The notes under the pieces were generated by a model. That model had not been told where the DNA came from. It did not search any database and worked only from the letters and a program-made list of their open reading frames with translations. 64,000 nt of DNA from Trichosphaerium sp. ATCC 40318. Its lineage: Eukaryota > Protista > Tubulinea. Location of the stretch: assembly GCA_038496445.1 (NCBI GenBank), contig JALMLS010000194.1:62001-126000 (forward strand). Direction: 5' to 3'. Position 1 is the stretch's first letter, and the number at the start of each line of letters is the position of its first letter. This document shows positions 6,058 through 50,928 of the stretch, one piece after another. Position numbers and translations under genes: made by a program.

Positions 6058-7930
6058 ATGGCAGAACTACAATCTTCGTCAGTTAATTTACAATATGTTA
6101 CCCGTTTGACCACTGGTGAAGACCATTCAATGGTAATCGCAGACGATGGCTTTGTTTACACGTGGGGACGAAACAATTACCACCAATTGGGTAATACAGA
6201 CGAAGGAAAGAGTTCTATCGCAAGACCAATAAAATCAGTCATAAATATCGTCTGTATTGCTGCTGGATGCTTTCATAGCCTTGCAGTTGATTCAAACGGT
6301 ATTGTGTATGCGTGGGGCATTAATTCAGATGGGTCATTGGGTCTGGGTCACTTTGCGTCACCTGTTTCGTCACCAACACGTGTTCCAAATCTCAACAATA
6401 TCACGAAAGTCTCTGCCTATTTTGCGAGTATGGCGTTATCAAAATCAGGTCATGTCTACTCTTGGGGATACAACAGATTTCAAGGATTGGGTCATTCATT
6501 CGACAATTCAATAGTTTCATCACCAGCGGTTATTCCAAATCTTCAAAATGTTCAAAAAATTCAAACTAATTTCCGTGTAAGTGGAGCAATGACGTCAACA
6601 GGTCATGTCTTTCTTTGGGGAACAACACAAGAGAAAGCAAAAGATAAATCATTATTCTTGAATCCAAAGACAATTTCACGTGTTCCAAGTATTGATGATG
6701 CCACTGATATTGCCATTGGTTCTCGTCATGTACTTGTTCTCCTCAAGTCAGGACACAACTACAATGGGTGTCTTGGGTTGGGTATTGATGACAATTATGG
6801 CCAGGGTATCATCAAAGGACTCAATAACATCATATCTGTACATGCTGGTTACTATTCATCATTTGCGATTGATGATGAAGGTTGTTTGTTTGGTTGGGGT
6901 AAAGGGAAATGGATTGATTCGTTCTCATCAAACAAACCATTAAAATTACCTGGAACATATCTTGAGTTTGCCAATAAACAATGGCATTACTTGGCAATAT
7001 CTCATGACTTTCAGTTGGTCACAGGTGGAAATAATGATTATGGTCAATCAACACGACAAAAGTTAACATTCACCAATTATGAAAAGGTACTTTGAAATCT
7101 TATTTGTCTTTCTTTTTGTCTGACAATCTACAAGCACTTTAAACCAGCCAATAAAGTAATCACAAAAGATAAAAACAATGATGCTGTGAAAGCAATGAAT
7201 GCAGAGGTAAAAGAAGACCGAAAAGATAAGTACTTGTCAAAAGCCGTGGTTGAGCCCAATCGTGATTACACCAAGTTTGGAGATGATCCTGATCACCTTG
7301 ATATCATTCAAGATGCCCTTGAAGCCTTTAAAATACACCAAAATCAAGACAACAACTTCCTCAACATAAGTCAAAGCCATAAAGACTACAATAAGGTATG
7401 TTCTAATCAAATAGTATAGCTAATAGTGATAAAGAAGTATGACCAACCAAATGATGATAATCGTTCTGACAACATACAAAATGATCCAAGAGCAATACCT
7501 CAAAATTCATGGATAAATAAACCAAATGTTTCCGTAATTGACAACAAGGTACATCAATATAAAAAATGTTTATTTTGTATTAATTAACTGGTTTTTAGAA
7601 TACCATCAACTTATCTAGTACACCATTTGTTACAACTCATTCAGATGTTGCTAAAGTGAATGTACAAGCTACCGTTTTTTTATTGATTATACTCACTTCT
7701 GTTAGAAGCCGAAACCGTCTGAAAGAACCGTACAATCAAGTGAAAAAATTGAGTGGGTGAGTACTTTGATATCAGCAGGGTTTGACAAATCAAGAGCACA
7801 AAAATTTGGATCCAAACTGAATCGTATGTGCGTTGACTTGAATGATGTCACAGGAAAGGTTATGAAAAGACTTGGATTCACTGTACTTGAGCGTCTTGAC
7901 TTTATTGAGTACCAAGACAAACAATTGTAA
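6058..7930 (+). CDS. RCC1-propeller + linker + SAM-like protein, copy 1 (linker A, tail X; 18-nt in-frame deletion in blade 5)
   Basis: RCC1 repeats (G-xx-HS..., VY.WG.N..G.LG) in exon 6058-7086; intron 7087-7134; further phase-0 exons ending ...RLGFTVLERLDFIEYQDKQL*. Confidence 0.85.
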
Positions 7931-8019
7931 ACGTTCAATAAACCTCCCTTTAGTTAGTATCAAATGTGTAGCTACAGCATTATTGTGGCGTCTAAGTAAC
8001 ATCAAAATATGTAATACAT

Positions 8020-8272
8020 GACATGGAAGTGTTTAAATACATTAAATCACGTAGAGAAGGCATGATAACAAATGACATTAGAACATGGGAAGGATGGTAC
8101 AACAACAATAAAAGCGAAGGTGAGTTTTAGGAGAAAGAGACTCTATTTGTGAATAACTATAAGAACGAGTCTTGATGGTAAATACACGATACATAGAGAT
8201 ATTTGGACATACAGCGAGGAAGAAGTGCTTCAAGGTCAGTACAAGCAAGGCGTTTTAGTATTCAAGCAATAG
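8020..8272 (+). pseudogene. Decayed MORN-variant repeat gene fragment
   Basis: Broken translation WEGWYNNNKSEGEF*...NNYKN/LDGKYT...QGQYKQGVLV with a stop and frameshift. Confidence 0.45.
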
Positions 8273-8362
8273 TATTGCTGTAAAGTTGAATGTTGTGGTT
8301 TGGTTAAGCAAAAGCTATACACATTGAAAACAAGCTTGAAGGTATGTACGAGAATGGAATGT

Positions 8363-9414
8363 TTATTTTTTTTTTTTAAAGCTCGTACTTTGGCTTGTCT
8401 TTCGCTTTTTTTGATTTCTTTGCAGCTTGTTTAGCATCATAATCTTTTGGCTTTTTCTTAACACACGTGCAAGCGTTTTGTTGACTTTCCAAGAATGGAG
8501 TACATCCGAAAATGAGAGTACCACTATAGTACGTTTTGGCCTAAAGAAAAAAAAAATAAGAATAAAAAAAGAAAAAAGTAAAAAAAGCCTATCTCCTCTC
8601 AAGACCGTCAAACAAATCCAGTAATGTATGGAATAGATTTATAAATAGTTGTTTTATAGTAATACAAAGTCCTTTGGGCCTTGGAGTACGTAGGAACACC
8701 ATAAAAAATTGTTTTTTTGAAAAAAAGAGAAAGCGTCACTTTTTGTGAAAACGGAAGTTGAGGTTTAAAAAGCGACTTCGTACCATTCCCAAACATTCAT
8801 TTATGTTGAGAGTCGCTTTGTATTGTTTTCTACAGTGCGTTTGCATGCATTGCTACAGAAAAAAAAGAAGTTAGACAAGAAAAGACAATAAAGAAGCATG
8901 TAATTCGATTTCATGCGTTGTTTGATCAGTTTTGAGCGGTTTTTTGTTCAAATAGCACATGAAACGCGATTGAAGCACAAAAAAATAACCACTGCATCTC
9001 TTAGCGTACGTGGAATGCGTCATCACACTTTTTTTTGTCTTTTCTGCATGTATCGTAACAATAATCATGACGGTTGCAACAGCTTGTAAAATCGAACTTG
9101 GATGATACCTAGAAGGGAATCAGCGCTCTTTAACGCTACTTTACTTGATTATCAATAAACAACGCTTAAAACATCATCTTGACGCTAAAAATGATGCGTT
9201 TACGTACTTGTATGCCCATTGCACCACATCCATTGGCTGTGGGCGTGTGTTTTGTATTTACCATCTTAACGCTGCCTATTCGCTGTTAGAATTACTCAGC
9301 ATTGAGTTTTAGCTTTCCTTTCGGGCAATGATAAAAACAATCCCCTTGAGCATTTATGACACAGGTACATACTGCCAATAGCAATAAAAACGCGTAGAAA
9401 GCAGATGAAGGCAT
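8363..9414 (-). CDS. Secretory phospholipase A2, group XII-like (multi-exon)
   Basis: Spliced MPSSAFYAFLLLLAVC...PTANGCGAMGIQ|VSSKFDFTSCCNRHDYCYDTCRKDKKKCDDAFH|QCMQTHC...FGCTPFLESQQNACTC; the CCxxHDxCY catalytic motif and NGCG loop match PLA2G12; first donor site is atypical. Confidence 0.85.
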
Positions 9415-9482
9415 CTTCGCGAAAAAAAAATTGAAAGAGGTAATTTGTCGCCGAATTTCTTTTGCAGTATTGCGCGGTTATT

Positions 9483-11296
9483 ATGGCAGAACCTCACACT
9501 TCCTCAGTTAATTTACAATATGTTAACCGTTTGGCCACTGGTTCCAACCATTCAATGGTAATCGCAGACGATGGCTTTGTTTACACGTGGGGACTAAACA
9601 ATCACCGCCAATTGGGTACAGACGAAAATGAGAGTTATATCGCAAGACCAATAAAATCACTCGTAAATATCGTCTGTATTGCTGCTGGATACGAACATAG
9701 CCTTGCAGTTGATTCAAACGGTATTGTGTATGTATGGGGCTGTAATTCAGACGGGTCATTGGGTCTGGGTCACTTTGCGTCACCTGTTTCGTCACCAACA
9801 CGTGTTCCAAATCTCAACAATATCACGAACGTCTCTGCCTATTTTGTGAGTATGGCGTTATCAAAATCAGGTCATGTCTACTCTTGGGGAGACAACAGAA
9901 ATCAAGGATTGGGTCATTCATTCAACAAGAAGAAAGTTTCATCACCAGCGGTTATTCCAAATCTTCAAAATGTTCAAAAAATTCAAACTAACGTGTATGT
10001 AAGTGGAGCAATGACGTCAACAGGTCATGTCTTTCTTTGGGGAACAACAGATCATGAAGCAAAAGATAAATCGTTATTCTTGAAACGAAAGACAATTTCA
10101 CGTGTTCCAAGTATTGATGATGCCACTGATATTGCCATTGGTGATTGTCATGTACTTGTTCTCCTCAAGTCAGGACAAGTATTTTCTTTTGGATACAACT
10201 TCAATGGGTGTCTTGGGTTGGGTATTGATGGCGAGTATGGCCAGGGTATCATCAAAGGACTCAATAACATCAAATCTGTACATGCTGGTGTGTGTACATC
10301 ATTTGCGATTGATGATGAAGGTTGTTTGTTTGGTTGGGGTAAAGGGAAATGGATTGATTCGTTCTCATCAAACAAACCATTAAAATTACCTGGAAAATAT
10401 CTTGAGTTTGCCAATAAACGATGGCATTACTTGGCAATATCTCATGACTTGTGGCATTACTTAGCAATATCTCATGACTTTCAGTTGGTCACAGGTGGAG
10501 ATAATGGTTATGGTCAATCAACACCACAAAAGTTAACATTCACCAATTATGAAAAGGTACTTTGAAATCTTATTTGTCTTTCTTTTTGTCTCACAATCTA
10601 CAAGCACTTTAAACCAGCCAATAAAGTAATCGCAAAAGATAAAAACGATGATGCTGTGAAAGCAATGAATGCAGAGGTAAAAGAAGACAGAAAAGATAAG
10701 TACTTGTCAAAAGCTGTGGTTGAGCCCAATCGTGATTACACCAAGTTTGGAGATGCTCCTGATCACCTTGATATCATTCAAGATGCCCTTGAAGCCTTTA
10801 AAATACACCAAAATCGAGATGAATACATCAACAATGTAAGTATCAGAAAATAAGCGATACCTATCTCACATGGTATTTTAGGTTAACAATCCTCGCTTGT
10901 CACTTGATGAACACACCTCAAATGTTCGCCCTGTTTCATCAAACTACAACACGTCACTTTTATCTGAACAATCGTGGAATGACAAGCCTCATGTTTCAGT
11001 CGCTCACACAAAGGTGTCTCGTTTTAATTTTATTTTCTTCACATTTAATTTTGTTCGTTTAGTCGGAGTTCTGTCCACCTCAAGAGAATCAATCAGTCGC
11101 TACTCCCAAATATGATTGGAAGTCAACATTGGCGAGGTTGGGTATTTCAAGTAAAAGAGCACAAGAACTTGGGTCGTTGATGAACAAAGCAGCCATCAAG
11201 AAAAGTGAAATCATTCCTGAAGTGTTAGAAGAGCTTGGATTCAATGTGATTGAGCGTATCAAAGTCATAAAAGCAAAGGAAAACAAAATGCTATAA
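9483..11296 (+). CDS. RCC1-propeller + linker + SAM-like protein, copy 2 (linker A, tail Y; 30-nt duplication WHYLAISHDL)
   Basis: ATG 9483; RCC1 exon ends at the gaaaag|gtact donor; final exon DWKSTLARLGISSKRAQELG...LGFNVIERIKVIKAKENKML*. Confidence 0.85.
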
Positions 11297-11554
11297 ACAG
11301 AACATCATTGTTAATGAAGGCCTGAGAATTTACACCTTTTGATGAATTAGCATAGCAAATTAGTCAGAATACTTGTATTGTACACAAAAACCTTTTCAAT
11401 AAATTTGCTAAGTACAAGCAAATCAATCGTATTATCAAAACAGTTAACAAACAATTTTGGTCACTTATATTACCAGCTGGTTTGCCAACACAAAAAAAAA
11501 ATTTACAATCTTTAGAATAATATTTCGTGGTATCATACAAGCGGCTTTTTAATA

Positions 11555-13033
11555 CGAATACTGTGAGGTTATTAGGATCACTCCTTATTTGATCAGTCTT
11601 GAATACAACTGTAGCACGCCATGTGGCCACAGCAGTATTTCTAGGAGCTGTCCACTATTTCATAAAACAGTCAGACAAAGAAAGAAAAACAACGTTCAAA
11701 AATCGTTTCAGACGTTAATGTTTTGTTGTTCTGTTGGACTTCTTGGTTGTTTTAACATAAGGAGAAACGTACAGTAAACATGCCATCAAAAGCTGGGTAC
11801 GGCTGACCATTTCGTGTCCACGTGATAGTAAGTTCTTCATTGTGATTGTTTTTCTCTTTACGGAACTGAGCCACTTGAACTACTTTAGCTGTAACAGTAA
11901 TATCTGCAGTGCCACAATCAGCTTCGATATCATCAATCAAGTTCACTACAGCAAAGAAACGAAGCCACCTAAATATCATGAACACGTGTCAACAAAATCA
12001 TTAAAGTGACATGGTACTACTTACATATTCTCAACATCAACAGGACAGAAATGTGGAGAACTCATATTGCGCATGAGACAATACTCGTTCATAGGTCTGT
12101 ATCCTGCCAACGTATTTCCAAGGCGGTAAGTCTTGTATGCTCCGATATAATCTTCCCAGTGGAACTGAGGTGCGTCCATGTATTCATGAAGTGTCAGAGA
12201 GCACAGTTGACGTTCAATTGGCCCAGAACCAGGGTACGCTATGAAAGTCATAAAAACGAAAGGAAAGGTTTTTTTAGTGTTTGGTTACCCTGCTTGAATT
12301 CTAAGGTATGTTCACCAGAAGAGAATCCTTCGGATCCCTCATACTGATAAAACGTTCTGTCGTCTTCACCATGTGACTTCCAATCGAGTGGTTCACCATC
12401 AAAGAGCACAATATTAAAAAACAAAAATCAGAAAAAACTTTGAAAGTACAAAAAGGGTTACTTGTTTGAAGTCTCAACTGAGCATCTTGTGCGACTACCG
12501 GAGGTCTATCAGTTAACCAATGACCCATTTGGAGGCTGCTTGAGTAAGAGACGAAGCGTAATTGGCGCCATTGTAGGCAGATCCACCATCATACTCCTCG
12601 CCTATGAAGTGTCATGTTACAACTGCTTTTTGCTCTAAAAGTCCGTACCAACTTTACCAAAGTTGTGACCGAGTTCTAGAAAAAAGTTGAGTTTGTAGGG
12701 TTTTTTTAGTTTTTTACCTTTGCTGGGCGTTTAACAACTTTACACTCCCTGTGAAGTACTCTTGTGGCAATATGCTTTGTCGTAGCATAGAGCTCATACA
12801 CTTTACCTCCATTTACGCCAGTATCATAAGAAATAATTTGAGGTGAAGATTCCAAGTTAAATTTTTTTTCTTCTACGAACCCACGATACTTTGGTACGTA
12901 CTCCTCAACTACTGTCGTGCATTTCTTGGAGTGGGGTATTTGTAACAAATCTGATGTGGTAGCTATCGTTTGGATGCTTCGACAATACTATTACCGCTAT
13001 GTACGCCAACAGAAGAGCAACAAAACGTTTCAT
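11555..13033 (-). pseudogene. Deleted duplicate of the M64 peptidase gene
   Basis: Near-identical to 15380-17704 but lacks ~16239-16419 and ~16683-17345 (the latter removes HE of HELGH) and the C-terminal end; also has small frameshifts. Confidence 0.9.
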
Positions 13034-13136
13034 ATACAAGCGAATATTTTGATGCTGGATTTGCCAAGTAAAACAAGTTGGCAAAACGTTTTGCTACACG
13101 CAGTCTAAACTTCAATATTACGGTTTTACATGAGTT

Positions 13137-13178
13137 ATGGCAGAACCGCTAACTACGTCAGTCAATTTGCATATGTTA
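13137..13178 (+). pseudogene. 5' stub of the RCC1 gene (MAEPLTTSVNL) ~100 bp upstream of copy 3
   Basis: atggcagaaccgctaactacgtcagtcaatttgcatatgtta resembles the start atggcagaaccacaatcttcg.c.gttaatttacaatatgtta. Confidence 0.75.
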
Positions 13179-13234
13179 CAGTTGAGATTTGGCTATCAAA
13201 ATTTTATATCAATTTGAGCTCATTACACGTTTAA

Positions 13235-15024
13235 ATGGCAGAACCACAATCTTCGTTGGTTAATTTACAATATGTTAACCGTTTGGCCACTGGTTGGGAC
13301 CATTCAATGGTAATCGCAGACGATGGCTTTGTTTACACGTGGGGACGAAACAATGAGCGTCAATTGGGTAACACAGACGAATATATGAGTTCTATCGCAA
13401 GACCAATAAAATCAGTCATAAATATCGTCTGTATTGCTGCTGGATGCTATCATAGCCTTGCAGTTGATTCAAACGGTATTGTGTATGTATGGGGCTGTAA
13501 TTCAGACGGGTCATTGGGTCTGGGTCACTTTGCGTCACCTGTTTCGTCACCAACACGTGTTCCAAATCTCAACAATATCACGAAAGTCTCTGCCTATTAT
13601 GCGAGTATGGCGTTATCAAAATCAGGTCATGTCTACTCTTGGGGAAACAACGAATATCAAGGATTGGGTCATTCATTCGACAATTCGAAAGTTTCATCAC
13701 CAGCGGTTATTCCAAATCTTCAAAATGTTCAAAAAATTCAAACTAATTGTGTAAGTGGAGCAATGACATCAACAGGTCATGTCTTTCTTTGGGGAACAAC
13801 AGAAGATGAAGCAATAGATAAATCATTATTCTTGAAACGAAAGACAATTTCACGTGTTCCAAGTATTGATGATGCCACTGATATTGCCATTGGTTTTAGT
13901 CATGTACTTGTTCTCCTCAAGTCAGGACAAGTATTTTCTTTTGGACACAACTGGTATGGGTGTGGGTGTCTTGGGTTGGGTATTGATGACGAGTATGGCC
14001 AGGGTATCATCAAAGGACTCAATAACATCAAATCTGTACATGCTGGTGTGTGGACATCATTTGCGATTGATGATGAAGGTTGTTTGTTTGGTTGGGGTAA
14101 AGGGAAATGGATTGATTCGTTCTCATCAAACAAACCATTAAAATTACCTGGAACATATCTTGAGTTTGCCAATAAACGACTTCATTCATTGGCAATATCT
14201 CATGACTTTCAGTTGGTCACAGGCGGAGATAATGATTATAGTGAATCAACACCACAAAAGTTAACATTCACCAATTATGAAAAGGTACTTTGAAATCTTA
14301 TATGTCTTTCTTTTTGTCTCACAATCTACAAGCACTTTAAACGAGCCAATAAAGTAATCACAAAAGATAAAAACGATGACGCTGTGAAAGCAATGAATGC
14401 AGAGTTAAAAGAAGACAGAAAAGACAAGTACTTGTCAAAAGCTGTGGTTGAGCCCAATCGTGATTACACCAAGTTTGGAGATGCTCCTGATCACCTTGAT
14501 ATCATTCAAGATGCCCTTGAAGCCTTTAAGATACACCAAAATAAAGAAGAACACATTGAAATACAAGTACATCAGAAACAAGCGATACCTATCTCACATG
14601 GTATTTTAGGTTGACAATCCTCGCTTGTCACTTGATGAAGACACCTCAAATGTTCGCCCTGTTTCATCAAACTACAACACGTCACTTTTATCTGAACAAT
14701 CATGGAATGACAAGCCTCATGTTTCAGTTGCTCACACAAAGGTGTCTCGTTTTAATTTTATTTTCTTCACATTTAATTTTGTTCATTTAGTCAGAGTTCT
14801 GTCCACCTCAAGATAATCAATCAGTCGCTACTCCCAAATATGATTGGAAATCAACATTGTTGAGGTTGGGTATTTCAAGTAAAAGAGCACAAGAACTTGG
14901 GTCGTTGATGAACAAAGCAGCCATAAAGAAAAGTGAAATCATTCCTGAAGTGTTAGAAGAGCTTGGATTCAATGTGATTGAGCGTATAAAAGTCATAAAA
15001 GCAAAGGAAAACAAAATGCTATAA
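13235..15024 (+). CDS. RCC1-propeller + linker + SAM-like protein, copy 3 (linker A, tail Y)
   Basis: 352-aa RCC1 ORF; downstream exons nearly identical to copy 2, ending KAKENKML*. Confidence 0.85.
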
Positions 15025-15309
15025 ACAGAACATCATTATTACTGAAGGCCTGACATTTGATGAATTAGCATAGCAAATTAGTCAGAATACTTGTATTGTA
15101 CACAAAAACCTTTTCAATAAATTCGCTAAGTACAAGTAAATCAATCGTATCAAAACAGTTAACAAACAATTTCGGTCGCTTATATTACCAGCTGTTTGCC
15201 AACACAAAAAAAAAATATTCAATCACGTGATATCTTTAGAATAATATTTCGTGGTATCATACAAGCTGTTTTCGTACAATCAAGATGCTTTTTAATACTA
15301 AAATGCAAT

Positions 15310-17704: not shown

Positions 17705-17807
17705 AAACAAGCGAATATTTTGCTGCTGGATTTGCCAAGCAAAACCAGTTGGCAAAACGTTTTGCTACATACAGTCTAAACTTCAATATTACGATTTTAC
17801 GTGAGTT

Positions 17808-17849
17808 ATGGCAGAACCACTAACTACGTCAGTCAATTTGCATATGTTA
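17808..17849 (+). pseudogene. 5' stub of the RCC1 gene upstream of copy 4
   Basis: Same stub as 13137-13178, part of the duplicated segment. Confidence 0.75.
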
Positions 17850-17904
17850 CAGTTGAGATTTGGCTATCAAAATTTGAAATCAATTTGAACATTACGCACG
17901 TTTA

Positions 17905-19933
17905 ATGGCAGAGCCACAATCTTCGTCAGTTAATTTACAATATGTTAACCGTTTGGCCACTGGTTACTTACATTCAATGGTAATCGCAGATGATGGCTTT
18001 GTTTACACATGGGGACAAAACAATGAGCGTCAATTGGGTAACACAGACGAAGAAAAGAGTTCTATCGCAAGACCAATAAAATCACTCATAAATATCGTCT
18101 GTATTGCTGCTGGACACGAATATAGCCTTGCAGTTGATTCAAACGGTATTGTGTATGTATGGGGCTGTAATTCAAACGGGTCATTGGGTCTAGGTCACTT
18201 TGCGTCACCTGTTTCGTCACCAACACGTGTTCCAAATCTCAACAATATCACGAAAGTCTCTGCCTTTTGGGTGAGTATGGCGTTATCAAAATCAGGTCAT
18301 GTCTACTCTTGGGGATACAACTTCTTTCAAGGATTGGGTCATTCATTCAACAATTTGAAAGTTTCATCACCAGCGGTTATTCCAAATCTTCAAAATGTTC
18401 AAAAAATTCAAACTAATTGGCATGTAAGTGGAGCAATGACGTCAACAGGTCATGTCTTTCTTTGGGGAAAAACAAATAATAAAGCAAGAGATAAATCATT
18501 ATTCTTGAATCCAAAGACAATTTCACGTGTTCCAAGTATTGATGATGCCACTGATATTGCAATTGGTTTTAGTCATGTACTTGTTCTCCTCAAGTCAGGA
18601 CAAGTATTTTCTTTTGGACACAACTACAATGGGCGTCTTGGGTTGGGTATTGATCACGATTATGGCCAGGGTATCATCAAAGGACTCAATAACATCATAT
18701 CTGTACATGCTGGTACATGGACATCATTTGCGATTGATGATGAAGGTTGTTTGTTTGGTTGGGGTAAAGGGAAACTTATTGATTCGTTCAAATCAAACAA
18801 ACCATTAAAATTACCTGGAAAATATCTTGAGTTTGCCAATAAACGACGTCATTACTTGGCAATATCTCATGACTTTCAGTTGGTCACAGGTGGAAATAAT
18901 TATTGTGGTCAATCAACACGACAAAAGTTAACATTCACCAATTATGAAAAGGTACTTTGAAATCTTATTTGTCTTTCTTTTTGTCTCACAATCTACAAGC
19001 ACTTTAAACCAGCCAATAAAGTAACAATAAAAGATAAAAACAATGATGCTGTGAAAGCAATGAATGCAGAGTTAAAAGAAGACCGAAAAGATAAGTACTT
19101 GTCAAAAGCTGTGATTGATCCCAGTCATGACTACACCAAATTTGGAGATACTACTGAACACCTTGACATGATTCAAGATGCACTTGAAGGCTTGAACATA
19201 CAGCAACAAAATAACTCTGTACGTCTCACTATAAGGTGAACAACTTACTGACATTTGTAGGAGTGCAACCAACGCAAGTATAGTCTGATAGTTGATGAAA
19301 CATTATCAAACAACCAAGTGTTAAATCAACAATCCTGGAGCAATAAACCAAATGTATCTGTTGAAGCCAACAATGAGGTACCATTTGCTTTATAAAATTC
19401 CGCACATGCAAGATGAATGTTACAACTAATTGGTTCCTAGTATTATGAATTAGAGGAAAATAGTATGCCACAGCATGACATAGCCAACAACTCTTCATCA
19501 CCAAAGAAATCGTCTTATCAGAGTCCAGCACCTGGTGACGATTTTAGAAGCAGCTCCTCTTCATCTGACAACCTAAGGCGACAATCATGGCTCAATAAAC
19601 CAAATGTTTCTGTTGACATAAAGAATAAGGTACACTTCCACGACTTTGCTTCTTTCTTCTTGTTGTAACACTTAATTGTTATTAATGGCGTTTGTTTAGT
19701 CACATTTCGGTGTACCACATGAGAATCAATCAGTTCTAAATGTTGAAACTGATTGGAAGTCAATATTGATGAAGTTGGGTATCGCAAATCAAAGAGCTCA
19801 AGAACTTGGATCATTGATGAACGATGCAGGCGCAACAATTGATGAAATTGATAAAGATGTGCTGATAGATCTTGGATTCAGCTTGAGGGAACGTATTAAA
19901 ATCATCAAAGCAAAGAACAACAACACTCTTTAA
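17905..19933 (+). CDS. RCC1-propeller + linker + SAM-like protein, copy 4 (linker A, two SWxxKPxVSV exons, tail Z)
   Basis: 351-aa RCC1 ORF; final exon DWKSILMKLGIANQRAQELG...LGFSLRERIKIIKAKNNNTL*. Confidence 0.85.
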
Positions 19934-20789
19934 AACTCAGCACCATTTGATAAAAACCGTTTAACATGAATAGAATGAAGGGAAAAATAAATGAACAAAA
20001 ATTGTAGTGTTGAACAAATAAAACTCAGTTAGAAGCATAATATGTTTTACTATTATTTGGTTCCACCTATAGAAGCTATTGCCCTTGGATAGCTTCCAAC
20101 CACCATATGTGTTCCTTGGTATGTTTCAAACAGTCTGTTTGCTGTTACATGAGCACTGGTTCATGGCCACAGTAACAGTTAAAGGCATATACACTCTTTC
20201 TAAAGTGATCACGTGGAGGTGCACAGCTAGGCAGAGGCATGAACAATGCTTTATTGCACCCAGTGATGATACAAATAAATACAATAAGCTATTTCCAAAA
20301 GACAATATTCGGTGTATGTACGAGCTGCTACCAGCTCATAAAAACACTAAAAATCCTTTGCAGTAAAAAATCCTGTTTTGTTCTTTGTTTAGCAAACTCA
20401 TTCCTAAAAAACACGATTTTCATTACAGCCTTATTGAGTTTATTATTTTCGTCTTTTGGCTTAGCTATTAAGAAGCTAATGGGACTCTATCACTAGGCCT
20501 AATATCAAACTATTGAGCGCAATGAGCGAGTAAACAGGAAAAATGAAGCACAGCTCTAGTTCCTAACACTGTTCTAAGCACTATCAATTATCCAAGTTAA
20601 CCTTTGCCATTACAAATAAATGCTTGACAATCAAATCAAGCTGATACTTTTTATCACATATGTACACTGTCTTCAAAAGAGGCAAATGAATTAGCACTCA
20701 TGAGCTTTGATATTGCTACAACTAAACAGAGAAGTGAGCAGTGAATCCCCAACAAATGTCATGTCAAAGAAAAAAAAAAGCAAACTGGA

Positions 20790-24583: not shown

Positions 24584-26431
24584 ATGGCAGAACCTCGCAC
24601 TTCGTCGGTTAATTTACAATATGTTAACCGTTTGGCCACTGGTTACGAACATTCAATGGTAATCGCAGACGATGGCTTTGTTTACACGTGGGGACAAAAC
24701 AATGAGCGCCAATTGGGTAACACAGACGAAAGAAAGAGTTCTATCGCAAGACCAATAAAATCACTCATAAATATCGTCTGTATTGCTGCTGGACGGAATC
24801 ATAGCCTTGCCGTTGATTCAAACGGTATTGTGTATTCATGGGGCCGTAATTCAAACGGGTCATTGGGTCTGGGTCACTTTGCGTCACCTGTTTCGTCACC
24901 AACACGTGTTCCAAATCTCAACAATATCACGAAAGTCTCTGCCTATCGTGTGAGTATGGCATTATCAAAATCAGGTCATGTCTACTCTTGGGGAGACAAC
25001 GAATATCAAGGATTGGGTCATTCATTCGACAATTCGAAAGTTTCATCACCAGTGGTTATTCCAAATCTTCAAAATGTTCAAAAAATTCAAACTAACTCGT
25101 ATGTAAGTGGAGCAATGACATCAACAGGTCATGTATTTCTTTGGGGAAAAACAAGAGATGAAGCGATAGATAAATCATTATTCTTGAATCCAAAGACAAT
25201 TTCACGTGTTCCAAGTATTGATGATGCCACTGATATTGCCATTGGTAATTATCATGTACTTGTTCTCCTCAAGTCAGGACAAGTATTTTCTTTTGGATAC
25301 AACTTGTATGGGTGTCTTGGGTTGGGTATTGATGACAATTATGGCCAGGGTATCATCAAAGGACTCAATAACATCATATCTGTACATGCTGGTGTGTGGA
25401 CATCATTTGCGATTGATGATGAAGGTTGTTTGTTTGGATGGGGTAAAGGGAAATGGATTGATTCGTTCACATCAAACAAACCATTAAAATTACCTGGAAA
25501 ATATCTTGAGTTTGCCAATAAATTAAATCATTACTTGGCAATATCTCATGACTTTCAGTTGGTCACAGGTGGAGATAATATTGTGGTGAATCAACACGAC
25601 AAAAGTTAACATTCACCAATTATGAAAAGGTACTTTGAAATCTTATTTGTCTTTCTTTTTGTCTGACAATCTACAAGCACTTTAAACCAGCCAATAAAGT
25701 AATCACAAAAGATAAAAACAATGATGCTGTGAAAGCAATGAATGCAGAGTTAAAAGAAGACAGAAAAGATAAGTACTTATCAAAAGCTGTGGTTGAGCCC
25801 AATCGTGATTACACCAAGTTTGGAGATGCTCCTGATCACCTTGATATCATTCAAGATGCCCTTGAAGCCCTTGAAATACAAAAGCAAGAAGAAAATTTTA
25901 AAGTATGTCTTTACAACTAACAATGCACGTGACAACTGATCATTATTCTAGAATGACGAATCAGATGATAACCCACAGCATGACATTGCCAACAACTTTT
26001 CATCACTAGACAGTCATAGTACATCACTTGATGAAGATGACTCCAGAAGCAGCTCTTCTTCATCGGATAATCTAAACGCTTTAAATCAACAATCGTGGCT
26101 CAATAAACCAAATGTTTCTGTTGACACCAAGAACAAGGTACCACTTTGCTTCTTTCTTCTTGTTGTAACACTTAATTGGTATTAATGGTGTTTTTAGTCA
26201 CATTTCGGTGTACCACACGAGAATCAATCGGTTCTAAATGTTGAAACTGATTGGAAGTCAATATTGATGAAGTTGGGTATCGCAAATCAAAGAGCTCAAG
26301 AACTTGGATCATTGATGAACGATGCAGGCGCAACAATTGATGAAATTGATAAAGATGTGCTGATAGATCTTGGATTCAGCTTGAGGGAACGTATTAAAAT
26401 CATCAAAGCAAAGAACAACAACACTCTTTAA
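24584..26431 (+). CDS. RCC1-propeller + linker + SAM-like protein, copy 5 (linker A, tail Z; 1-nt frameshift near 25580)
   Basis: RCC1 ORF; ggagataatattgt is one base short of copy 4 ggaaataattattgt; tail identical to copy 4. Confidence 0.8.
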
Positions 26432-28444: not shown

Positions 28445-28759
28445 TAGTGGTTGTGGAGGTCGTTTTTTGGGAGATTTATTACACTGTGCTTAAAATAAAA
28501 GGAGATTTTTATTGTGAAACGTGATTGGTTTTTTACGTTTCCCGGAATCTTACACAGTGCTTATTTGCGTAACAGCTGTTTATTGACAGGAACAAAAATC
28601 TCTGTCTGTTACCTAAGTAAGGTAACTTAGGAAAAGCTCGAAGAGAACGCTAAGAAACTAATTCGGAACAAAGAGTACGACTTGATGATACCACTTTATT
28701 GTGGGTTTAACAAAGGATACAACAAAAGTGCAATTCCAACCTTGTTGTTTTGTAATACT

Positions 28760-31407: not shown

Positions 31408-33245
31408 ATGGCAGTACCTCGCACTTCGTCGGTTAATTTACAATACATTAACCGGTTGGCCACTGGTTGGGCACATTCAATGGTAATCACAGACGATGGC
31501 TTTGTTTACACGTGGGGACGAAACAATGAGCACCAATTGGGTAACACAGACGAAGAAAAGAGTTCTATCGCAAGACCAATAAAATCACTCATAAATATCG
31601 TCTGTATTGCTGTTGGATGCGAACATAGCCTTGCAGTTGATTCAAATGGTATTGTGTATGCATGGGGGAGTAATTCATATGGGTCATTGGGTCTGGGTCA
31701 CTTTGCGTCACGTGTTTCGTCACCAACACGTGTTCCAAATCTCACCCAAATCACTCAAGTCACTGCCTATCATGCGAGTATGGCGTTATCACATTCAGGT
31801 CATGTCTACTCTTGGGGAGACAACAGATGGGATGGATTGGGTCATTCATTCGATAATTCAAAAGTAAACTCACCAAAACGTATTCCAAGTCTTGATCATG
31901 TCAACAAAATTCAAACTAATTGGCATGTAAGTGGAGCAATGACATCAACAGGTCATGTATTTCTTTGGGGAACAACAGAAGATAATGCAATAGATAAATC
32001 GTTATTCTTGAATCCAAAGACAATTTCACGTGTTCCAAGTATTGATGATGCCACTGATATTGCCATTGGTCTTGGGCATTTACTTGTTCTCCTCAAGTCA
32101 GGACAAGTATTTTCTTTTGGACACAACTACAATGGGTGTCTTGGGTTGGGTATTGATGATGAGTATGGCCAGGGTATCATCAAAGACTCAATAACATCAA
32201 ATCTGTACATGCTGGTTACTGTACATCATTTGCAATTGATGATGAAGGTTGTTTGTTTGGCTGGGGTAAAGGGAAACTTATTGATTCGTTCAATTCAAAC
32301 AAACCATTAAAATTACCTGGAAAATATCTTGAGTTTGCTAATAAATTAGATCATTACTTGGCAATATCTCATGACTTCAAGTTGGTCACAGGTGGTCATA
32401 ACTTTTTCGGTGTATCTTCACCACAAAAATTAACATTCAACAACTACAAAAAGGTACTCAATCATTTGATATCAGCATGATATGCATACAATTTGTTTAG
32501 GTAATCCAAACCTCAGTTGACAATTCAGAAAAGATACGCAAAGAGTTGAAACAAGACCCAAAACACAACTTAACATCAATTGATGGTGGTCGAGAATACA
32601 CCAAGTTTGAAGATGCTCCAGAGCATGTTGATAGAATCAAAGATGCCCTTGAAGCCTTTGAAATACAACAAAGCCAGGAAGACACTTTAAATGATGTACC
32701 TTTCTTGATAAACATAAAATACTCTAACAACGATTCATAGGCTAAGAAAGATGATATCAATGAAAAACCATTTCTAACGGATGCATTACTAACATCAAAG
32801 CCATGGATCAATAAACCAGATGTTTCTATTGACGACAACAAGGTGCTCAGATCTTCAATTTTATTTTGTTATTTACATATTAATTCCAAGAGCTTTCCTT
32901 CTGCACTCATTAGACATGGTTTATCAAGTAATGAATCATCTCTACACCGACCATATGTTAGTGATACGATAGGAACTGTATGAATTACAATATTGTATTT
33001 GTTATTGACTGACACTTCACGTCTAGAATCCAATACCAGCCACACCTAAAACATCAAGTACCAAAGTTGAGTGGGTGACTATTTTGATGTCAGCAGGGTT
33101 TGACAAATCAAGAGCACATCAGCTTGGATCCAAAATGAATCGTGCATGTTTTGAATGGAGTGATGTAACAGGTGAGGTTATGAAAAGGCTTGGATTCGAT
33201 CCTTTCGAGCGTCTTGACTTTATCGAGTACCAAGACAAATTGTAA
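31408..33245 (+). CDS. RCC1-propeller + linker + SAM-like protein, copy 6 (linker B, tail X; 1-nt frameshift ~32185)
   Basis: atcaaagactc versus atcaaaggactc in other copies; ends ...LGFDPFERLDFIEYQDKL*. Confidence 0.8.
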
Positions 33246-44388: not shown

Positions 44389-46181
44389 ATGGCAGAACCT
44401 CGCACTTCGTCTGTTAATTTACAATATGTTAACCGTTTGGCCGCTTCGGGCCATTCAATGGTAATCGCAGACGATGGCTTTGTTTACACGTGGGGACTAA
44501 ACAGACACCGTCAATTGGGTAACACAGACGTAAAAAAGAGTTCTATCGCAAGACCAATAAAGTCAGTCACAAATATCGTCTGTATTGCTGCTGGATTCAA
44601 TCATAGCCTTGCAGTTGATTCAAACGGTATTGTGTATGCATGGGGATATAATTCAGGTGGCGTATTGGGTCTGGGTCACTTTGCGTCACCTGTTTCGTCA
44701 CCAACACGTGTTCCAAATCTCAACAATATAACGAAAGTCTCTGCCGATTGTGTGAGTATGGCGTTATCACAAACAGGTCATGTCTACTCTTGGGGATACA
44801 ATGAATATCAGGGATTGGGTCATTCATTCGACAAGTTGAAAGTTTTATCACCAGCGGTTATTCCAAATCTTCAAAATGTTCAAAAAATTCAAACTAACTC
44901 GCATGTAAGTGGAGCAATGACGTCAACAGGTCATGTCTTTCTTTGGGGAACAACAGATAATGAAGCAATAGATAAATTGTTATTCTTGAAACCAAAGACA
45001 ATTTCACGTGTTCCAAGTATTGATGATGCCACTGATATTGTCATTGGTGTTAGTCATGTACTTGTTCTCCTCAAGTCAGGACAAGTATTTTCTTTTGGAG
45101 ACAACTTCAATGGGTGTCTTGGGTTGGGTATTGATCGCGAGTATGGTCAGGGTATCATCAAAGGACTCAATAACATCAAATCTGTACATGCTGGTGTGTG
45201 GACATCATTTGCGATTGATGATGAAGGTTGTTTGTTTGGTTGGGGTAAAGGGAAATGGATTGATTCGTTCTCATCAAACAAACCATTAAAATTATCTGGA
45301 AAATATCTTGAGTTTGCCAATAAACGACATCATTACTTGGCAATATCTCATGACTTCAAGTTGGTTACAGGCGGTAGTAACAATTATAGTGAATCTTCAC
45401 CACAAGCATTGACTTTTAACAACTACAAAAAGGTACTTCAGAATTTGATAATAGATTGTTGTTTAACTGTTTGTTTAGGTAATCCAAACCTCAGTTGACA
45501 CTTTAGAAAAGATACGTAAAGAGCTGAAACAAGACCCAAAACACAATTACACATCAATTGATGGTGGTGGAGAATACACCAAGTTTGGAGATGCTCCAGA
45601 GCACATTGATATGATCAAAGATGCCCTTGAAGCCTTTGAAATACAACAGAATGAAGAAGAATACATCAATGTACGTCAACAAAAAAAAAACGAGAGAAAA
45701 GAGGTAAATGTATGTATCCTAAACCATTCTCATAGCCTCACAATGATCCGAGTGACATCATTCTACCATCACCTGATGAAAGTACAATAACTCCATTGCG
45801 TGATGTGAACATAGCATTACCTGACGAGTCATGGATTGACAAACCCAATGTGTCGGTTGTTAATACCAAGGTACGTATACAGTTTCGTTTGTATGTATCA
45901 CAAACTTTTTTATTTAGCCAACATTTACTCATCCACATGATATCATATCAATCGCTGCTTCAACTACTCCAACTCCTATGCTCCAAAACGTTGAAGTTGA
46001 TTGGGTGCGAGTATTAATGAAGTTGGGTATTCCAAGTAAGCGAGCCCAAGAGCTTGGATCATTGATGAATGATGCAGGCGCAACAATTGATGAAATTGAT
46101 AAAGATATATTGAAAGAACTTGGATTCAGCTTGATGGAACGTATCAAGGTCATAAAAGCAAAGAGAAATAATCTTCTTTAG
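44389..46181 (+). CDS. RCC1-propeller + linker + SAM-like protein, copy 7 (linker B, tail Z-like)
   Basis: RCC1 ORF; last exon DWVRVLMKLGIPSKRAQELG...LGFSLMERIKVIKAKRNNLL*. Confidence 0.85.
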
Positions 46182-46619: not shown

Positions 46620-46945
46620 TCATTCTACGATTACGTCAACAACTTTATGAACAAACTGATTTGTAAATGGCTTAAGAGAAGGAAGCCATAAGGTATGGCA
46701 TGCAAATGGTATACCCTTATGGCACATGCACATTACTCCAATAATAAGCTTGAAGGCAAGTATAAGAGCTAGTATGACAGAGGTTCACTGTATGATAGCT
46801 GTGTTCGTAATCAATTTGTATTCCAATAGTGGTGGCTTGGTAAGACAGTATCATTACATTAATGGTAAACGAAATGGAGAATACACAAGCTGGTATAAAA
46901 GGGTAGGGAGTTAAAAGAATGTTGTATTAATGATGATCTAAGTGG
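46620..46945 (+). pseudogene. Decayed MORN-variant repeat gene
   Basis: FVNGLREGSHKVWHANG../HYSNNKLEGKYKS*YD../HYINGKRNGEYTSWY with a stop and frameshifts. Confidence 0.7.
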
Positions 46946-47116
46946 TGTTGGTGAGTTCAGTTGAACGTTTATTGCTTAATTTTAGTCACAGGATTATGGT
47001 TTTTTTCTAGTTCACCACTCAAGGTACATTAACGGGTTTTTACAGTGGGACTAAAATGAATTAAACCTTGTTTCAGGTATTGCCACTACTATTTGTTTGT
47101 GAAACAGATATTATTT

Positions 47117-48754
47117 ACGGCAGAACCTCAAACTGGGTCGGTTAATTTACAATATGTTAACCGTTTGGCCACTGGTTTACACCATTCAATGGTAATCGCA
47201 GACGATGGCTTTGTTTACACGTGGGGACAAAACAAACAGCGCCAATTGGGTAATACAGACAAAGAAAAGAGTTCTATCGCAAGACCAATAAAATCACTCA
47301 TAAATATCGTCTGTATTGCTGCTGGATGGTCTCACAGTCTTGCTGTTGACGCAAATGGTGTTGTATATTCATGGGGCCATAATTCATTCGGCCAATTGGG
47401 TCTGGGTGACTTTGCGTCTGTTTTATCGCCAACACGTGTTCCAAATCTCCCAAAAATCACTCAAGTCACTGCTTCTTGGGCGAGTATGGCGTTATCACAA
47501 ACAGGTCATGTCTACTCATGGGGATACAACTTCTATCATGGATTGGGTCATTCACTCAACACAAAGAAAGTAAACTCACCAAAACGTATTCCAAGCCTAG
47601 ATCATGTCAAGAAAATTCAAACTAATTGGCTTGGTACATGTGGAGCAATGACATCAACAGGACATGTCTTTCTTTGGGGAACAACAAAAGAAGAAGAAAA
47701 AGATAAACCATTATTCTTGAATCCAAAGACAATTTCATGTGTTCTAAGTATTGATGATGCCACTGATATTGCCATTGGCGGCTATCATGTACTTGTTCTC
47801 CTCAAGTCAGGACAAGTATTTTCTTTTGGAAACAACTTCAAAGGGTGTCTTGGGTTGGGTATTGATAACAGTGATGGCCAGGGTATCATCAAAGGACTCA
47901 ATAACATTGTATCTGTGCACGCCGGTCAGTGGTCATCGTTTGCAATTGATGATGAAGGTTGTTTGTTTGGTTGGGGTCATGGGAAATGGATTGATTCGTT
48001 CAAATCAAACAAACCATTAAAATTACCTGGAAAATATCTTGAGTTTGCCAATAAACGATTTCATTACTTGGCAATATCTCGTGACTTCAAGTTGGTTACA
48101 GGTGGCAATAACGATTATGGTGAATCTTCACCACAAGCATTGACTTTTAACAACTACAAAAAGGTACTTCAAAATTTGATAATAGATTGTTGTTTAACTG
48201 TTTGTTTTAGGTAATCCAAACCTCAGTTGACACTTTAGAAAAGATACGTAAAGAGTTGAAACAAGACCCAAAACACAAGTTCACATCAATTGATGCTGGT
48301 CGAGAATACGCCAAGTTTGGAGATGCTCCAGAGCACATTGATATGATCAAAGATGCCCTTGAAGCCTTTGAAATACAACAAAATGAAGAATACATCAATG
48401 TACGTCAACAGAAAAGAGGTAAATACATGTATTCCTAAATCATTCTCATAGCCTCACAATGATCCGAGTGACATCGTTCTACCATCTCCTAATGAAAGTA
48501 CAATAACTCCATTGTGTGATGTGAACATGGTATTACCTGACAAGTCATGGATTGACAAAACGTTTGAACATGATTGGGTGTCAGCATTGACAAGGCTGGG
48601 TATTACAAGCAATAGAGCCCAAGAGCTTGGATCATTGATGAATGAGCTTGGTATTCAACTGAACGAAATTGATCAAGATGTATTGAAAGAACTTGGATTC
48701 AGCTTGATGGAACGTATCAAGGTCACAAAAGCAAAGAGAAATAACCTTTTTTAG
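47117..48754 (+). CDS. RCC1-propeller + linker + SAM-like protein, copy 8 (linker B; ATG changed to ACG; last two exons fused by deletion)
   Basis: tttACGgcagaacct at the family start position; KSWIDK joins directly to TFEHDWVSALTRLGI...KAKRNNLF*. Confidence 0.75.
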
Positions 48755-49091
48755 TAATACTGTTTGCAATGTTAGAATAGAAATAGCACATGTACCAAGT
48801 GTATTGAATGTATTTAACCTACAGCTGTTGATACCTTTAGTGTACTTCTTATTGTACGGTTTAGTTTACCAAGCCTATTTAATGTTCAATAATACCAGAT
48901 GTTAGAGAATGGCGTTTAGCCATTTTAGTTTTTGTAGGTGGTAAACCGAGACCAAAATTTGACCCCCTTAACATGCTAAGGATTATTCTTCAAAGCTAGT
49001 TGGTATGTTTTTAACACAATAACACTTTAGCACAATCGAAGTAAACCAACAATAATGTTACTAAGCTAAGCTATTTTACTCAAAAGCATTT

Positions 49092-50928
49092 TTACAGGAT
49101 ATTTCTGTGCTTTGCTTTGAATACTTTGACCCTTTCAATGGGACTGAATTCTAGTTCTTCTAGTAAGGTTGAAGTTATGTCCTCAGGCTTGATATTAGCA
49201 TCATTCATCAATGATCCAAGTTCTTGTGCTCTTTCATTTGCAATACCCAACTTCATCAATATTATCTTCCAATCAGGTTCAACTTTTGGAGCTGATTGGT
49301 TCTCATATGCTTCTCTGAAATGTGACTAGCACAGCCCGCATTAATAAACGCAAGTACTTTTACAAACTAACGAGATATGTACCTTATTATTGGCGTCAAC
49401 AGAAATGTTGGGTTTATTGAGCCAGGACTTTTGAGATAAAACGCTCAGATCATCATCTGATTCGTCACACTAGAATAATGATCAGTTGTCACGTGGATTG
49501 TTAGTTGTAAAGGCTTACTTTAAAGCGTTCCTCTTGCTTTTGTATTTCAAGGGCTTCAAGGGCATCTTGAATCATATTAAGGTGTTCAGGAGCATCTCCA
49601 AACTTTGTGTATTCTCTATCAGCATCAAAATCACGATTTGGTTCAATAACAGCTTTTGCCAAGTACTTTTCAATTCTGTCTTCCTTCAGAGCCTCACTGC
49701 TTTTGGCTGTAGTGATTTGCTATATTGTCATTTAACTTAAATATTTATGTTTGGTTTTGAGCACCTTTTCACTCATTTGTTTTGTTGGCGGAAGATCTGT
49801 AGAGTTATATTTGGTGTTCTAAAAATATCAACATTAAAGCTCAGAAAGACAACTTGTTATGGTACCTTTTTGTGATAGTTGAATGTCAATTTTTGCAGGT
49901 TTGATTCTCCATAATTATTACGACCATCTGTGTCCAACTTGAGGTCATGAGATATTGCCAAATAATGATATGCTTTATTGGCAAACTCAAGATATTTTCC
50001 AGGTAATTTTAATGGTTTTTTTGATCTGAACAAATCAATCCATTTCCCTTTACCCCACCCAAACAAACAACCTTCATCATCAATCGCAAATGATGTCCAC
50101 ACACCAGCATGTACAGATATGATGTTATTGAGTCCTTTGACCATACTCGCGATCAATACCCAACCCAAGACACCCACGCCAGTTAAGTCCAAAAGAAAAT
50201 ACTTGTCCTGACTTGAGGAGAACAAGTACATGATGAGAACCAATGGCAATATCAGTGGCATCATCAACACTTGGAACACGTGAAATTGTCTTTGGATTCA
50301 AGAATAACGATTTATCTTTTGCTTCATCTTCTGTTGTTCCCCAAAGAAATACATGACCTGTTGATGTCATTGCTCCACTTATGTCATTAGTTTGAATTTT
50401 GTTGACATGATCAAGACTTGGAATACGTTTTGGTGAGTTTACTTTCTTTGTGTCAAATGAATGACCCAATCCATGATATTCATTGTCTCCCCAAGAGTAG
50501 ACATGACCTGCTTGCGATAACGCCATACTCACATGATAGGCAGATACTTGCGTGATATTGTTGAGATTTGGAACACGTGTTGGTGACGAAACAGACTTGA
50601 AGTGACCCAGACCCAACGACCCAGCTGAATTACCGCCCCATGAATACACAATACCATTTGAATCAACTGCAAGGCTATGAAAAAACCCAGCAGCAATACA
50701 GACGATATTTGTGAGTGACTTTATTGGTCTAGCAATAGCTCTCGCTTTGGTTATTAGTTCCTGTAAATATTGAAAAGTAGACTTCTTGGCTGTGCCTAAC
50801 TGGCACCAAGAGTTACCCCCCCACGTGTAAACAAAGCCATCGTCTGCGATTACCATTGAATGTTCGTAACCAGCGGCCAAACGGTTAACATATTGTAAAT
50901 TAACCGACGAAGTTTGAGGTTCTGCCAT
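49092..50928 (-). pseudogene. RCC1-propeller + linker + SAM-like, copy 9 (inverted; 11-nt frameshifting deletion ~50139)
   Basis: tatggtcaaaggactc versus tatggtcagggtatcatcaaaggactc; tail DWKIILMKLGIANERAQELG...LEFSPIERVKVFKAKHRNIL*. Confidence 0.8.

Follow-up and report, generated by a model that had tools for sequence, protein, structure and literature searches.

The window, that is, the whole 64,000-nt stretch of DNA analysed here, contained nine paralogs of one gene family, indicating that the organism has nine or more gene copies that are nearly identical. In each gene, a seven-bladed RCC1-like propeller encoded by a single exon was followed by a linker of about 130-150 amino acids and a SAM-fold tail. 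A 43-nt framework string occurred nine times (seven exact, one with one mismatch and one with two mismatches), eight times on the forward strand and once on the reverse strand. Automatic gene models over-spliced the SAM exon and were used solely as evidence of open frames. The features were as follows.

1..151, forward strand: 3' flank fragment, 99% identical to 11307-11457 and 89% identical to 15035-15173
6058..7930, forward strand: copy 1; propeller exon 6058-7086, linker exons, SAM exon about 7706-7930, tail type A
9483..11296, forward strand: copy 2; exons 9483-10556, 10605-10835, 10882-11013 and 11063-11296, about 556 amino acids, tail type B
13235..15024, forward strand: copy 3; exons 13235-14284, 14333-14566, 14610-14741 and 14791-15024, tail type B
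17905..19933, forward strand: copy 4; propeller exon 17905-18951 (structure modelled), linker exons, SAM exon 19700-19933, tail type C
24584..26431, forward strand: copy 5; propeller exon 24584-25629, SAM exon 26198-26431
31408..33245, forward strand: copy 6; propeller exon 31408-32453, SAM exon about 33027-33245, tail type A as in copy 1
44389..46181, forward strand: copy 7; mosaic propeller exon 44389-45432, SAM exon 45918-46181 (tail modelled)
47117..48754, forward strand: copy 8; propeller exon 47117-48163, tail end at 48754, ACG at the start position
49092..50928, reverse strand: copy 9, inverted; propeller exon 50928-49866, SAM exon 49325-49092

Copy 9 was extended to 49092 because its downstream exons encode the SAM-like tail. 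The propeller exons carried an 18-nt in-frame deletion in copy 1 (codons 233-238), a 30-nt in-frame duplication in copy 2 (exon 9483-10556) and a 3-nt deletion at blade 1 in copy 7. The window self-comparison and ORF scan revealed that each copy has its own flanks and is set among ordinary genes. Furthermore, the interval matched by 1..151 (11307-11457) lies immediately past the copy 2 stop, and this 3' flank makes a tenth copy directly left of the window likely.

The RCC1 propeller proposed in the earlier note was supported by both profile and structure. Copies 3 and 4 matched the Pfam family WD40_RLD at 196 and 214 bits (cut-off 150) and RCC1 and RCC1_2 at more than 100 bits, and the AF2 model of the copy 4 propeller had seven blades (pLDDT 86, pTM 0.87), the fold of UVR8, HERC RLDs, RPGR, RCC1 and BLIP-II. 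This model aligned with UVR8 at TM 0.86 and with RCC1-like domain proteins at TM 0.6-0.87, and its structural identity to RCC1 was 18-22%. A word-seeded protein search with copy 4 recovered 26 RCC1 proteins of generic type (22-37% identity) but not P0027 (see below), and no propeller relatives were found in viral contigs. The suggested cytosolic location agreed with three propeller exons checked, in which neither a signal peptide nor a clear TM segment was found. The linker and tail exons scanned matched no NTPase family, and no effector domain was recognisable in the genes.

The tail, called SAM-like from the beginning, was predicted to adopt a SAM fold. In the model of the copy 7 tail, pLDDT was 83-90 over the core, and the top VIA match was Sla1 SHD2 (3idw; rmsd 1.7, 61 residues aligned) with a Z of 10.1; the domain is small and helical, and VIA itself advises caution below about 13. 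SAMs also made up most of the 40 rows that followed in the VIA list. Identity to SHD2 was 18% and the Foldseek E was 0.05; the top ESM match was also a SAM (0.88), which served as a lead only. None of the nine tail exons in the window matched a Pfam SAM family at the gathering score, the tail had no match below E 0.7 among PDB sequences, and no tail relatives were found in metagenome contigs. A transcriptome protein, P0027, showed the same propeller and SAM architecture, while a Trichosphaerium protein, P0028, had the tail without the propeller; its linker match was weak and pairwise, and its tail matched SAM_4 (Pfam) at E 0.003, below the cut-off. P0029-P0033 were dropped as relatives, their matches being driven by repeats. 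An RPN1 fragment found at most 59% identity among the 120 of 481 hits listed, and P0028 together with an ESM cluster (0.90) gives a weak hint of Amoebozoa. In fold, the tail resembles Sla1 SHD2 (Pfam SAM_4) and other polymerising SAMs such as those of tankyrase and SARM1. SHD2 self-associates at high local concentration, and its head-to-tail polymerisation has been described. However, the present tail is fused to a propeller and is only 18% identical to SHD2.

In the codon alignment of the nine copies, 29 of 348 codons had at least four amino-acid states. The earlier note had listed the residues at five motifs (G-xx-H in blades 1 and 2, SA-xxx, IG-xx-H and ANK-xx-H), and all five lists were confirmed; it had counted about 14 variable windows, which are indeed variable, though we found about 17. 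Its description of a framework nearly invariant even at synonymous sites was correct for copies 1-5 alone, in which framework identity was 97-98% and pS outside the motif sites was 0.044; for pairs that included any of copies 6-9 identity fell to 89-95%, and pS over all nine copies was 0.121. Substitutions were often whole-codon and enriched in W/Y/F/H/R, as had been noticed: two or three bases differed in 467 of 1214 pairwise codon comparisons at 35 motif x-positions, and these five residues made up 68 of 152 distinct states there vs 63 of 438 elsewhere. All 29 hypervariable codons fell on one face of the propeller, as had been supposed, the face being assigned by strand topology, not coordinates, with some manual setting of the strand boundaries in blades 4, 6 and 7. 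Twenty-six of them lay in a-b turns or c-d loops and the remaining three were the last residue of strand c, whereas none of the 59 codons in loops of the opposite face (b-c turns and d-a linkers) was hypervariable. The variable face corresponds to the UVR8 dimer surface: in the alignment, codons 21/22, 71/72 and 122 fall at the three GWRHT motifs of UVR8, the Trps of which are located on that surface. The three motifs as defined for UVR8 (PMC5108777) were present in none of the nine copies, and those positions vary. At the level of sequence, the hypervariability of G-xx-H argues against a fixed host partner, such as that of the Ran-exchange RCC1.

Codon models detected strong positive selection. 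With all copies, omega was 8.8 at 11.4% of sites (M1a/M2a LRT 268); with the five intact copies it was 11.5, and with seven segment trees and double and triple changes allowed it was 7.9 (LRT 127). Null simulations with heavy recombination gave LRTs of 0-27 in 8/8, vs the observed 268. Because multi-hit codons inflate the NG86 pS and the Fisher p values count pairs as independent, we relied on simulations as controls: at motif sites, only 5 of 318 same-residue pairs differed synonymously, vs 28-41% in 12/12 hotspot simulations. A neutral mutation hotspot was ruled out by these few synonymous differences together with a near-identical intron 1, in which 0-2 of 48 bases differed among copies 1-5. 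The signal thus persists once recombination, multi-nucleotide changes and neutral hotspots are controlled for, and dN/dS exceeded 1 at the variable sites with recombination controlled (omega about 8-9 for about 11% of sites). This selection shows that the binding partner has been changing, not which partner it is.

The copies read as gene-conversion mosaics. Framework sites alone gave evidence of recombination (PHI p=0.0002), and loop codons were common to distant copies: at least two identical codon states recurred in different framework clades at 10 of 33 variable codons vs 10 of 133 other polymorphic codons. The tails appear to assort independently of the propellers and to fall into at least four types. 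For example, copies 1-5 were 97-98% alike in framework and 50-100% alike in tail DNA, the core of the copy 5 SAM exon was identical to that of copy 4, and the tail DNA of copy 1 was 83% like that of copy 6 and about 50% like the other copies compared. Near-identical internal repeats of variable number were absent, all nine copies having seven divergent blades, and the window self-BLAST listed no within-exon repeats of 80 bases or more.

Transcript contigs with GT..AG joints indicated that copies are transcribed and spliced. Three of four runs contained such joints, and the fourth showed a loose end at an exon junction; the runs carried no RNA label on record, and their RNA status was taken from the splice joints. 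The 48-nt intron 1 of copy 1 was skipped in X1, the 49-nt last intron of copy 2 was skipped in X1, X2 and X3, the SAM exon of copy 1 was matched in X7 with 0 differences, and the exon1-exon2 junction of copy 4 was present as a loose end in X7. The contigs also revealed one further paralog outside the window; among the matches listed, the letters of X1 at codon 88 of this paralog were missing from its X7 contig. Of 11 residue changes listed for two transcript contigs from outside the window, 7 were at hypervariable codons, and the same non-window variant recurred in three studies among the matches listed.

The likeness to the fungal HET-E WD40 pattern that the earlier note had drawn was well founded. 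Excerpts of the Podospora study describe, for the HNWD genes (HET-E, HET-D, HET-R), a few selected codons per blade at the interaction face and concerted evolution within and between loci (PMC2873952). As in those HNWD/NWD STAND receptors, we found a beta-propeller as putative sensor, positively selected face codons and concerted evolution. However, the blades here are RCC1 and not WD40, the C-terminal domain is a predicted SAM, NACHT and HET domains are lacking, and exchange occurs between paralogs at the same blade whereas HNWD genes shuffle near-identical repeats. Because the propeller is different and there is no NTPase, this HNWD-type strategy probably arose independently on the RCC1 propeller. 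HERC5/6 RLDs also show antiviral positive selection and conversion in the excerpts consulted, with an omega of 3-5 for the HERC6 RLD across species (PMC7775381) vs about 9 here; in contrast to HERC, the present genes have no HECT domain and vary over the whole face among paralogs of one genome. Partial sources also report 189 RCC1 genes in the dinoflagellate Symbiodinium minutum (PMC4083563) and many F-box/RCC1 proteins in pithoviruses and their relatives; the dinoflagellate and giant-virus matches were 13-27% identical, and those excerpts mention neither a SAM tail nor a hypervariable face. In a literature search covering few subscription papers, we found no description of such a propeller-SAM family.

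Lamprey VLRs and plant NLR LRR repertoires likewise combine an unvarying repeat scaffold with a binding face that is variable and rich in aromatic residues. Unlike these, the present family uses a propeller instead of LRRs, is predicted to be cytosolic and shows no sign of somatic assembly. We consider it somewhat better than even (roughly 55%) that the genes form an inherited repertoire of cytosolic sensors for fast-evolving foreign proteins, which would cluster via the SAM tail. The sequence patterns suggest that point mutations create new loop residues that selection retains, that gene conversion homogenises the scaffold, transfers short loop tracts and brings propellers into new combinations with tails of at least four types, and that copies are born and then decay. 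By analogy, the ligands could be proteins of intracellular bacteria or viruses. Binding of a multivalent target would raise the local SAM concentration and might trigger head-to-tail polymerisation as in Sla1 SHD2, and the polymer may then signal or sequester the target. A more specific form of this proposal, which we offer tentatively, is that the proteins are a new, NTPase-free class of protist innate immune receptors. They would form a combinatorial repertoire in which gene conversion reshuffles the RCC1 faces loop by loop and interchangeable SAM tails polymerise once pathogen proteins are bound, comparable to a SARM1-like switch with a swappable head. Counting against the sensor reading are the lack of an NTPase or recognisable effector domain, the missing Pfam SAM match and modest fold scores of the tail, the assignment of the face by topology and the lesions in four copies; moreover, the best match of the modelled tail belongs to an endocytic adaptor and not to an immune protein. 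For the detection of intracellular bacteria and giant viruses by free-living protists, a largely open problem, the family provides concrete candidates. The selected codons outline a predicted binding surface, so that ligands are reachable by pull-downs and loop swaps. As a by-product, they represent a natural library of 25-30 freely changeable RCC1-scaffold positions, useful for binder design.

The proteins could instead be BLIP-II-like neutralising binders or decoys for toxins or effectors of prey or parasites; should the organism be parasitic, they could be effectors that target host proteins. In both cases the SAM would add avidity only. BLIP-II, an RCC1-group propeller, is a pure inhibitor, the variable face is aromatic-rich, and there is no catalytic or death domain. 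However, the lack of a signal peptide in the three copies checked means that they are not secreted by the usual route, and retention of the tail in all nine copies and a distant relative suggests more than avidity; we regard the two variants together as unlikely. Allorecognition, in which, once cells had fused, the propellers would recognise a polymorphic self protein and the SAM tail would trigger rejection, also seems rather improbable. It has the precedent of the HNWD genes, which share the evolutionary signature and whose shown role is allorecognition (HET-E and HET-D read HET-C), and it fits the cytosolic location and the hint of between-sample variation at codon 88 of the extra paralog. 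However, the diversity is mostly between paralogs of one assembly, and a scan of 141 of the 285 ORFs in the window revealed no partner gene that varies with them.

The match to Sla1 SHD2 and the propeller-less tail of P0028 would fit endocytic or phagosomal adaptors, in which a Sla1-like SAM switch is joined to propellers diversified for cargo sorting or vacuole marking. We hold this to be quite improbable, for host cargo does not usually drive an omega of about 9, the genes contain no SH3 or other Sla1 domain, and the identity of the tail to SHD2 is low. Compared with the preferred inherited repertoire, somatic or programmed diversification (VLR- or DGR-like), in which a mutator or templated copying would rewrite loop codons within a lineage, is very improbable. 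The many multi-base codon changes, the frequent T or C at third positions and the short tracts common to distant copies could point to such a process. However, synonymous change is lower at loop codons than elsewhere, codons for Trp, Glu and Lys occur frequently, the non-window variant recurs across studies, and the window self-comparison revealed no bank of partial cassettes. A DGR in particular seems very improbable, as no reverse transcriptase was found in the scanned ORFs (141/285) and the variable codons include TGG and GAA. The antibody-like diversification that the earlier note had entertained was not supported; the data fit germline selection and gene conversion.

Four of the nine copies carried lesions: a 1-nt deletion in copy 5 (codon 333) and in copy 6 (codon 260), a start ATG replaced by ACG in copy 8, and a 33-nt insertion and an 11-nt frameshifting deletion in copy 9. 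Each of the 1-nt losses shortens a two-base run, and these two could be assembly errors. The lesions, like the apparently independent assortment of the tails, the likely tenth copy and the SHD2-like tail, had been missed by the earlier note. An artefact of collapsed or erroneous assembly, or neutral decay of relaxed surface loops, might be read from the four lesions, two of them typical of long-read errors, but it is already largely refuted by the separate flanks of the copies among ordinary genes, the spliced transcripts that match them, an omega far above 1 and the conserved loops of the opposite face.

We observed transcribed genes in which a homogenised propeller scaffold bore an arms-race signature confined to one face. 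The window was eukaryotic DNA of 37% GC with many short GT-AG introns, and many of its splice donors read GTAC instead of GTAA. Among 285 stop-to-stop frames of at least 62 aa, a Pfam scan covered 141 and found ordinary genes (carbonic anhydrase, DnaJ, peptidase M64, RPN1 and a largest subunit of RNA polymerase). The framework string quoted in the earlier note was present in nine copies of the propeller gene. Each copy started with a single long exon of about 349 codons; after an intron of 46-48 nt came the linker exons, two to four in number, and then a final exon with the helical tail. Frameshifts occurred in copies 5, 6 and 9, and the start codon of copy 8 was ACG; the 1-nt losses in copies 5 and 6 shortened two-base runs and may be sequence errors. 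The 3' flank of copy 2 recurred with 99% identity at bases 1-151 of the window, so there is probably a tenth copy just beyond the window edge. A degenerate repeat of the gene's first codons, possibly a relic of an earlier duplication, was seen at 13137-13180, about 100 nt upstream of the start of copy 3, with a counterpart before copy 4. The linker exons (e.g. 19300-19630) carried a conserved SWxNKPxVSV block that terminated at an exon edge, with two in copy 4, and a second conserved block, YTKFGD...DALEA; similar words were also found in P0028, a database protein.

The five residue lists of the earlier note were correct against the nine copies, and at least four amino-acid states occurred at 29 of 348 codons (codon 1 excluded; codons 44-55, the site of an insertion in copy 9, masked in that copy here and in the segment-tree selection and recombination analyses). 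The near-invariant framework it had described held for copies 1-5 (97-98% identity) but not for the other pairs (89-95%), and at 46 variable codons, picked post hoc, identity fell to 14-47%. The RCC1-like domain scored above the Pfam cut-off in both copies tested, and an AF2 model of copy 4 (29-sequence alignment) had seven four-stranded blades, with UVR8, RPGR and HERC RLDs as the nearest structures. The loops of an up-and-down blade point two ways, a-b turns and c-d loops to one side, b-c turns and d-a linkers to the opposite side; BLIP-II uses the first of these faces for binding. The proposed clustering of variable sites on one face was supported on this model, since 26 of the 29 hypervariable codons fell in a-b turns or c-d loops, the other three were final residues of strand c, and none occurred among 59 opposite-face codons, with faces assigned from strand topology rather than coordinates and, in blades 4, 6 and 7, with strand limits partly set manually. 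In copies 1-5, pN was 0.415 in a-b turns versus 0.000 in b-c turns. Furthermore, codons 21/22, 71/72 and 122 aligned with the GWRHT motifs of UVR8, whose Trps are described on the dimer surface (PMC9546227; PMC5108777).

Selection was tested with custom codon-model code. Across the nine copies, M2a put 11.4% of sites in a class with omega 8.8 (LRT 268), and 27 sites had posteriors above 0.95. When the data were restricted to the five intact copies, omega was 11.5 (LRT 119). Omega was still 7.9 (LRT 127) when the model used seven segment trees and permitted double and triple changes, so the expected dN/dS above 1 at variable sites persisted under recombination control. Recombination does inflate the test, yet far too little to explain the signal, since null simulations (n=8; a fresh tree per 10 or 30 codons) reached LRTs of 0-27 and omega of at most 3.9. 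A neutral mutation hotspot was excluded because same-residue pairs at motif sites rarely differed synonymously (5/318, versus 790/9481 elsewhere and 28-41% in 12 hotspot simulations). Among copies 1-5, the 48 bases of intron 1 showed 0-2 differences.

Recombination itself was evident (PHI, 72 informative framework columns, p=0.0002). For example, copy 7 was a mosaic: over codons 113-166 most columns agreed with copies 1-5, and codons 324-348 resembled copies 6, 8 and 9. The two framework clades had at least two identical codon states in common at 10 of 33 variable codons. The same was true of 10 out of 133 other polymorphic codons, and most of these ten adjoined variable loops. The shared states include the tract at codons 138-140 in copies 4 and 8 and, in copies 4 and 6, a three-base change at codon 291. 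Propellers 97-98% alike carried tails just 50-73% alike, because the tails split into at least four types:

Copies 1 and 6: one tail type
Copies 2 and 3: one tail type
Copies 4 and 5: one tail type, identical
Copies 7, 8 and 9: tails of larger spread

The tail had no match in Pfam or among PDB sequences. Its model matched Sla1 SHD2 best (Foldseek E 0.05; in VIA, Z 10.1 and rmsd 1.7 over 61 residues, with many other SAMs trailing at Z 5-7), though helical domains may score so high through arrangement alone. SHD2 is reported to hide a motif of its own chain and to self-associate once its local concentration is high (PMC9499636). When 1.84 billion representatives were searched with a profile, seven matches were returned, and two of these were confirmed as real relatives. 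P0027 (596 aa, from a eukaryote transcriptome) was 39% identical to the window propeller, and P0028, from Trichosphaerium, had the tail and no propeller. Since P0027 has the whole propeller-linker-tail order, and P0028 the tail with a weak linker match (E 7e-4), the architecture predates the window expansion.

For transcription, contigs, which indicate presence rather than levels, were taken from four of 14 listed runs, none recorded as RNA, and compared with window 5000-20100 (copies 1-4). Transcription of copies, on which the earlier reading depended, was supported by GT..AG skips, which coincided in run X1 with intron 1 of copy 1 and in X1, X2 and X3 with the last intron of copy 2. Run X7 supported it too: the SAM exon of copy 1 was matched without differences, and the exon 1-2 junction appeared as a loose end. 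One contig type was unlike any window copy; because 10 of its listed letters recurred in X1, X3 and X7, from three studies, we regard it as a stable further paralog. Of 11 residue changes listed for this paralog and a second variant, 7 hit hypervariable codons, a partial count.

The family is real, strongly selected and apparently undescribed, and its sensor function is predicted by analogy; no description of an RCC1-SAM repertoire was found in the literature searched. Mutation and selection would generate new loops, conversion would spread and recombine them, and copies would turn over. The targets would be foreign proteins in the cytosol, whose binding would cluster the SAM tails; no obvious signal peptide was seen in three copies examined. 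We give this inherited sensor a probability of roughly 0.55. That the proteins neutralise what they bind is a lesser possibility, and a role in allorecognition is very nearly as plausible as that. A trafficking adaptor is improbable, a somatic mechanism more so, and an artefact the least probable of all. Selection on few face codons and concerted evolution are likewise reported for the HNWD WD40 sensor of Podospora (PMC2873952; PMC10197012). However, the window family lacks NACHT and near-identical internal repeats and therefore falls outside the HNWD class. RCC1 domains under antiviral selection are reported in HERC5/6 (PMC7775381), a large RCC1 family in Symbiodinium (PMC4083563) and large RCC1 families in giant viruses; PMC9218822 gives an overview of repetitive RCC1/BLIP-II propellers.

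Other features were observed around the copies:

11556-12676 and 15380-17350 (-): peptidase M64-like multi-exon gene, partially duplicated (98-99% identical) together with copies 2-4; Pfam matches at 16644-17323; all four runs show it spliced, and their contigs include a diverged second paralog
21113-23100 (-) and 53500-55560 (+): intron-rich genes with repeated DWY-type motifs, which had no family match; one ends with a DnaJ domain
28710-29157 (-) and 46660-46950 (+): broken repeat fragments, which we take to be MORN-like, each flanked by family copies (copies 7 and 8 in the case of the second); no Pfam match
51801-53078 (-), adjoining copy 9: intronless LRR gene (425 aa, GVHTI-type repeats; Pfam, LRR only), whose start we read as F-box-like and whose repeats seem to vary at fixed positions too
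55706-56016 and 56403-56716: inverted duplication (315 nt, 96% identical) with a tRNA-Lys(TTT) gene in each arm
4798-5076 (-), shortly upstream of copy 1: exon whose Frizzled-type cysteine-rich (Fz) domain scored above the Pfam cut-off
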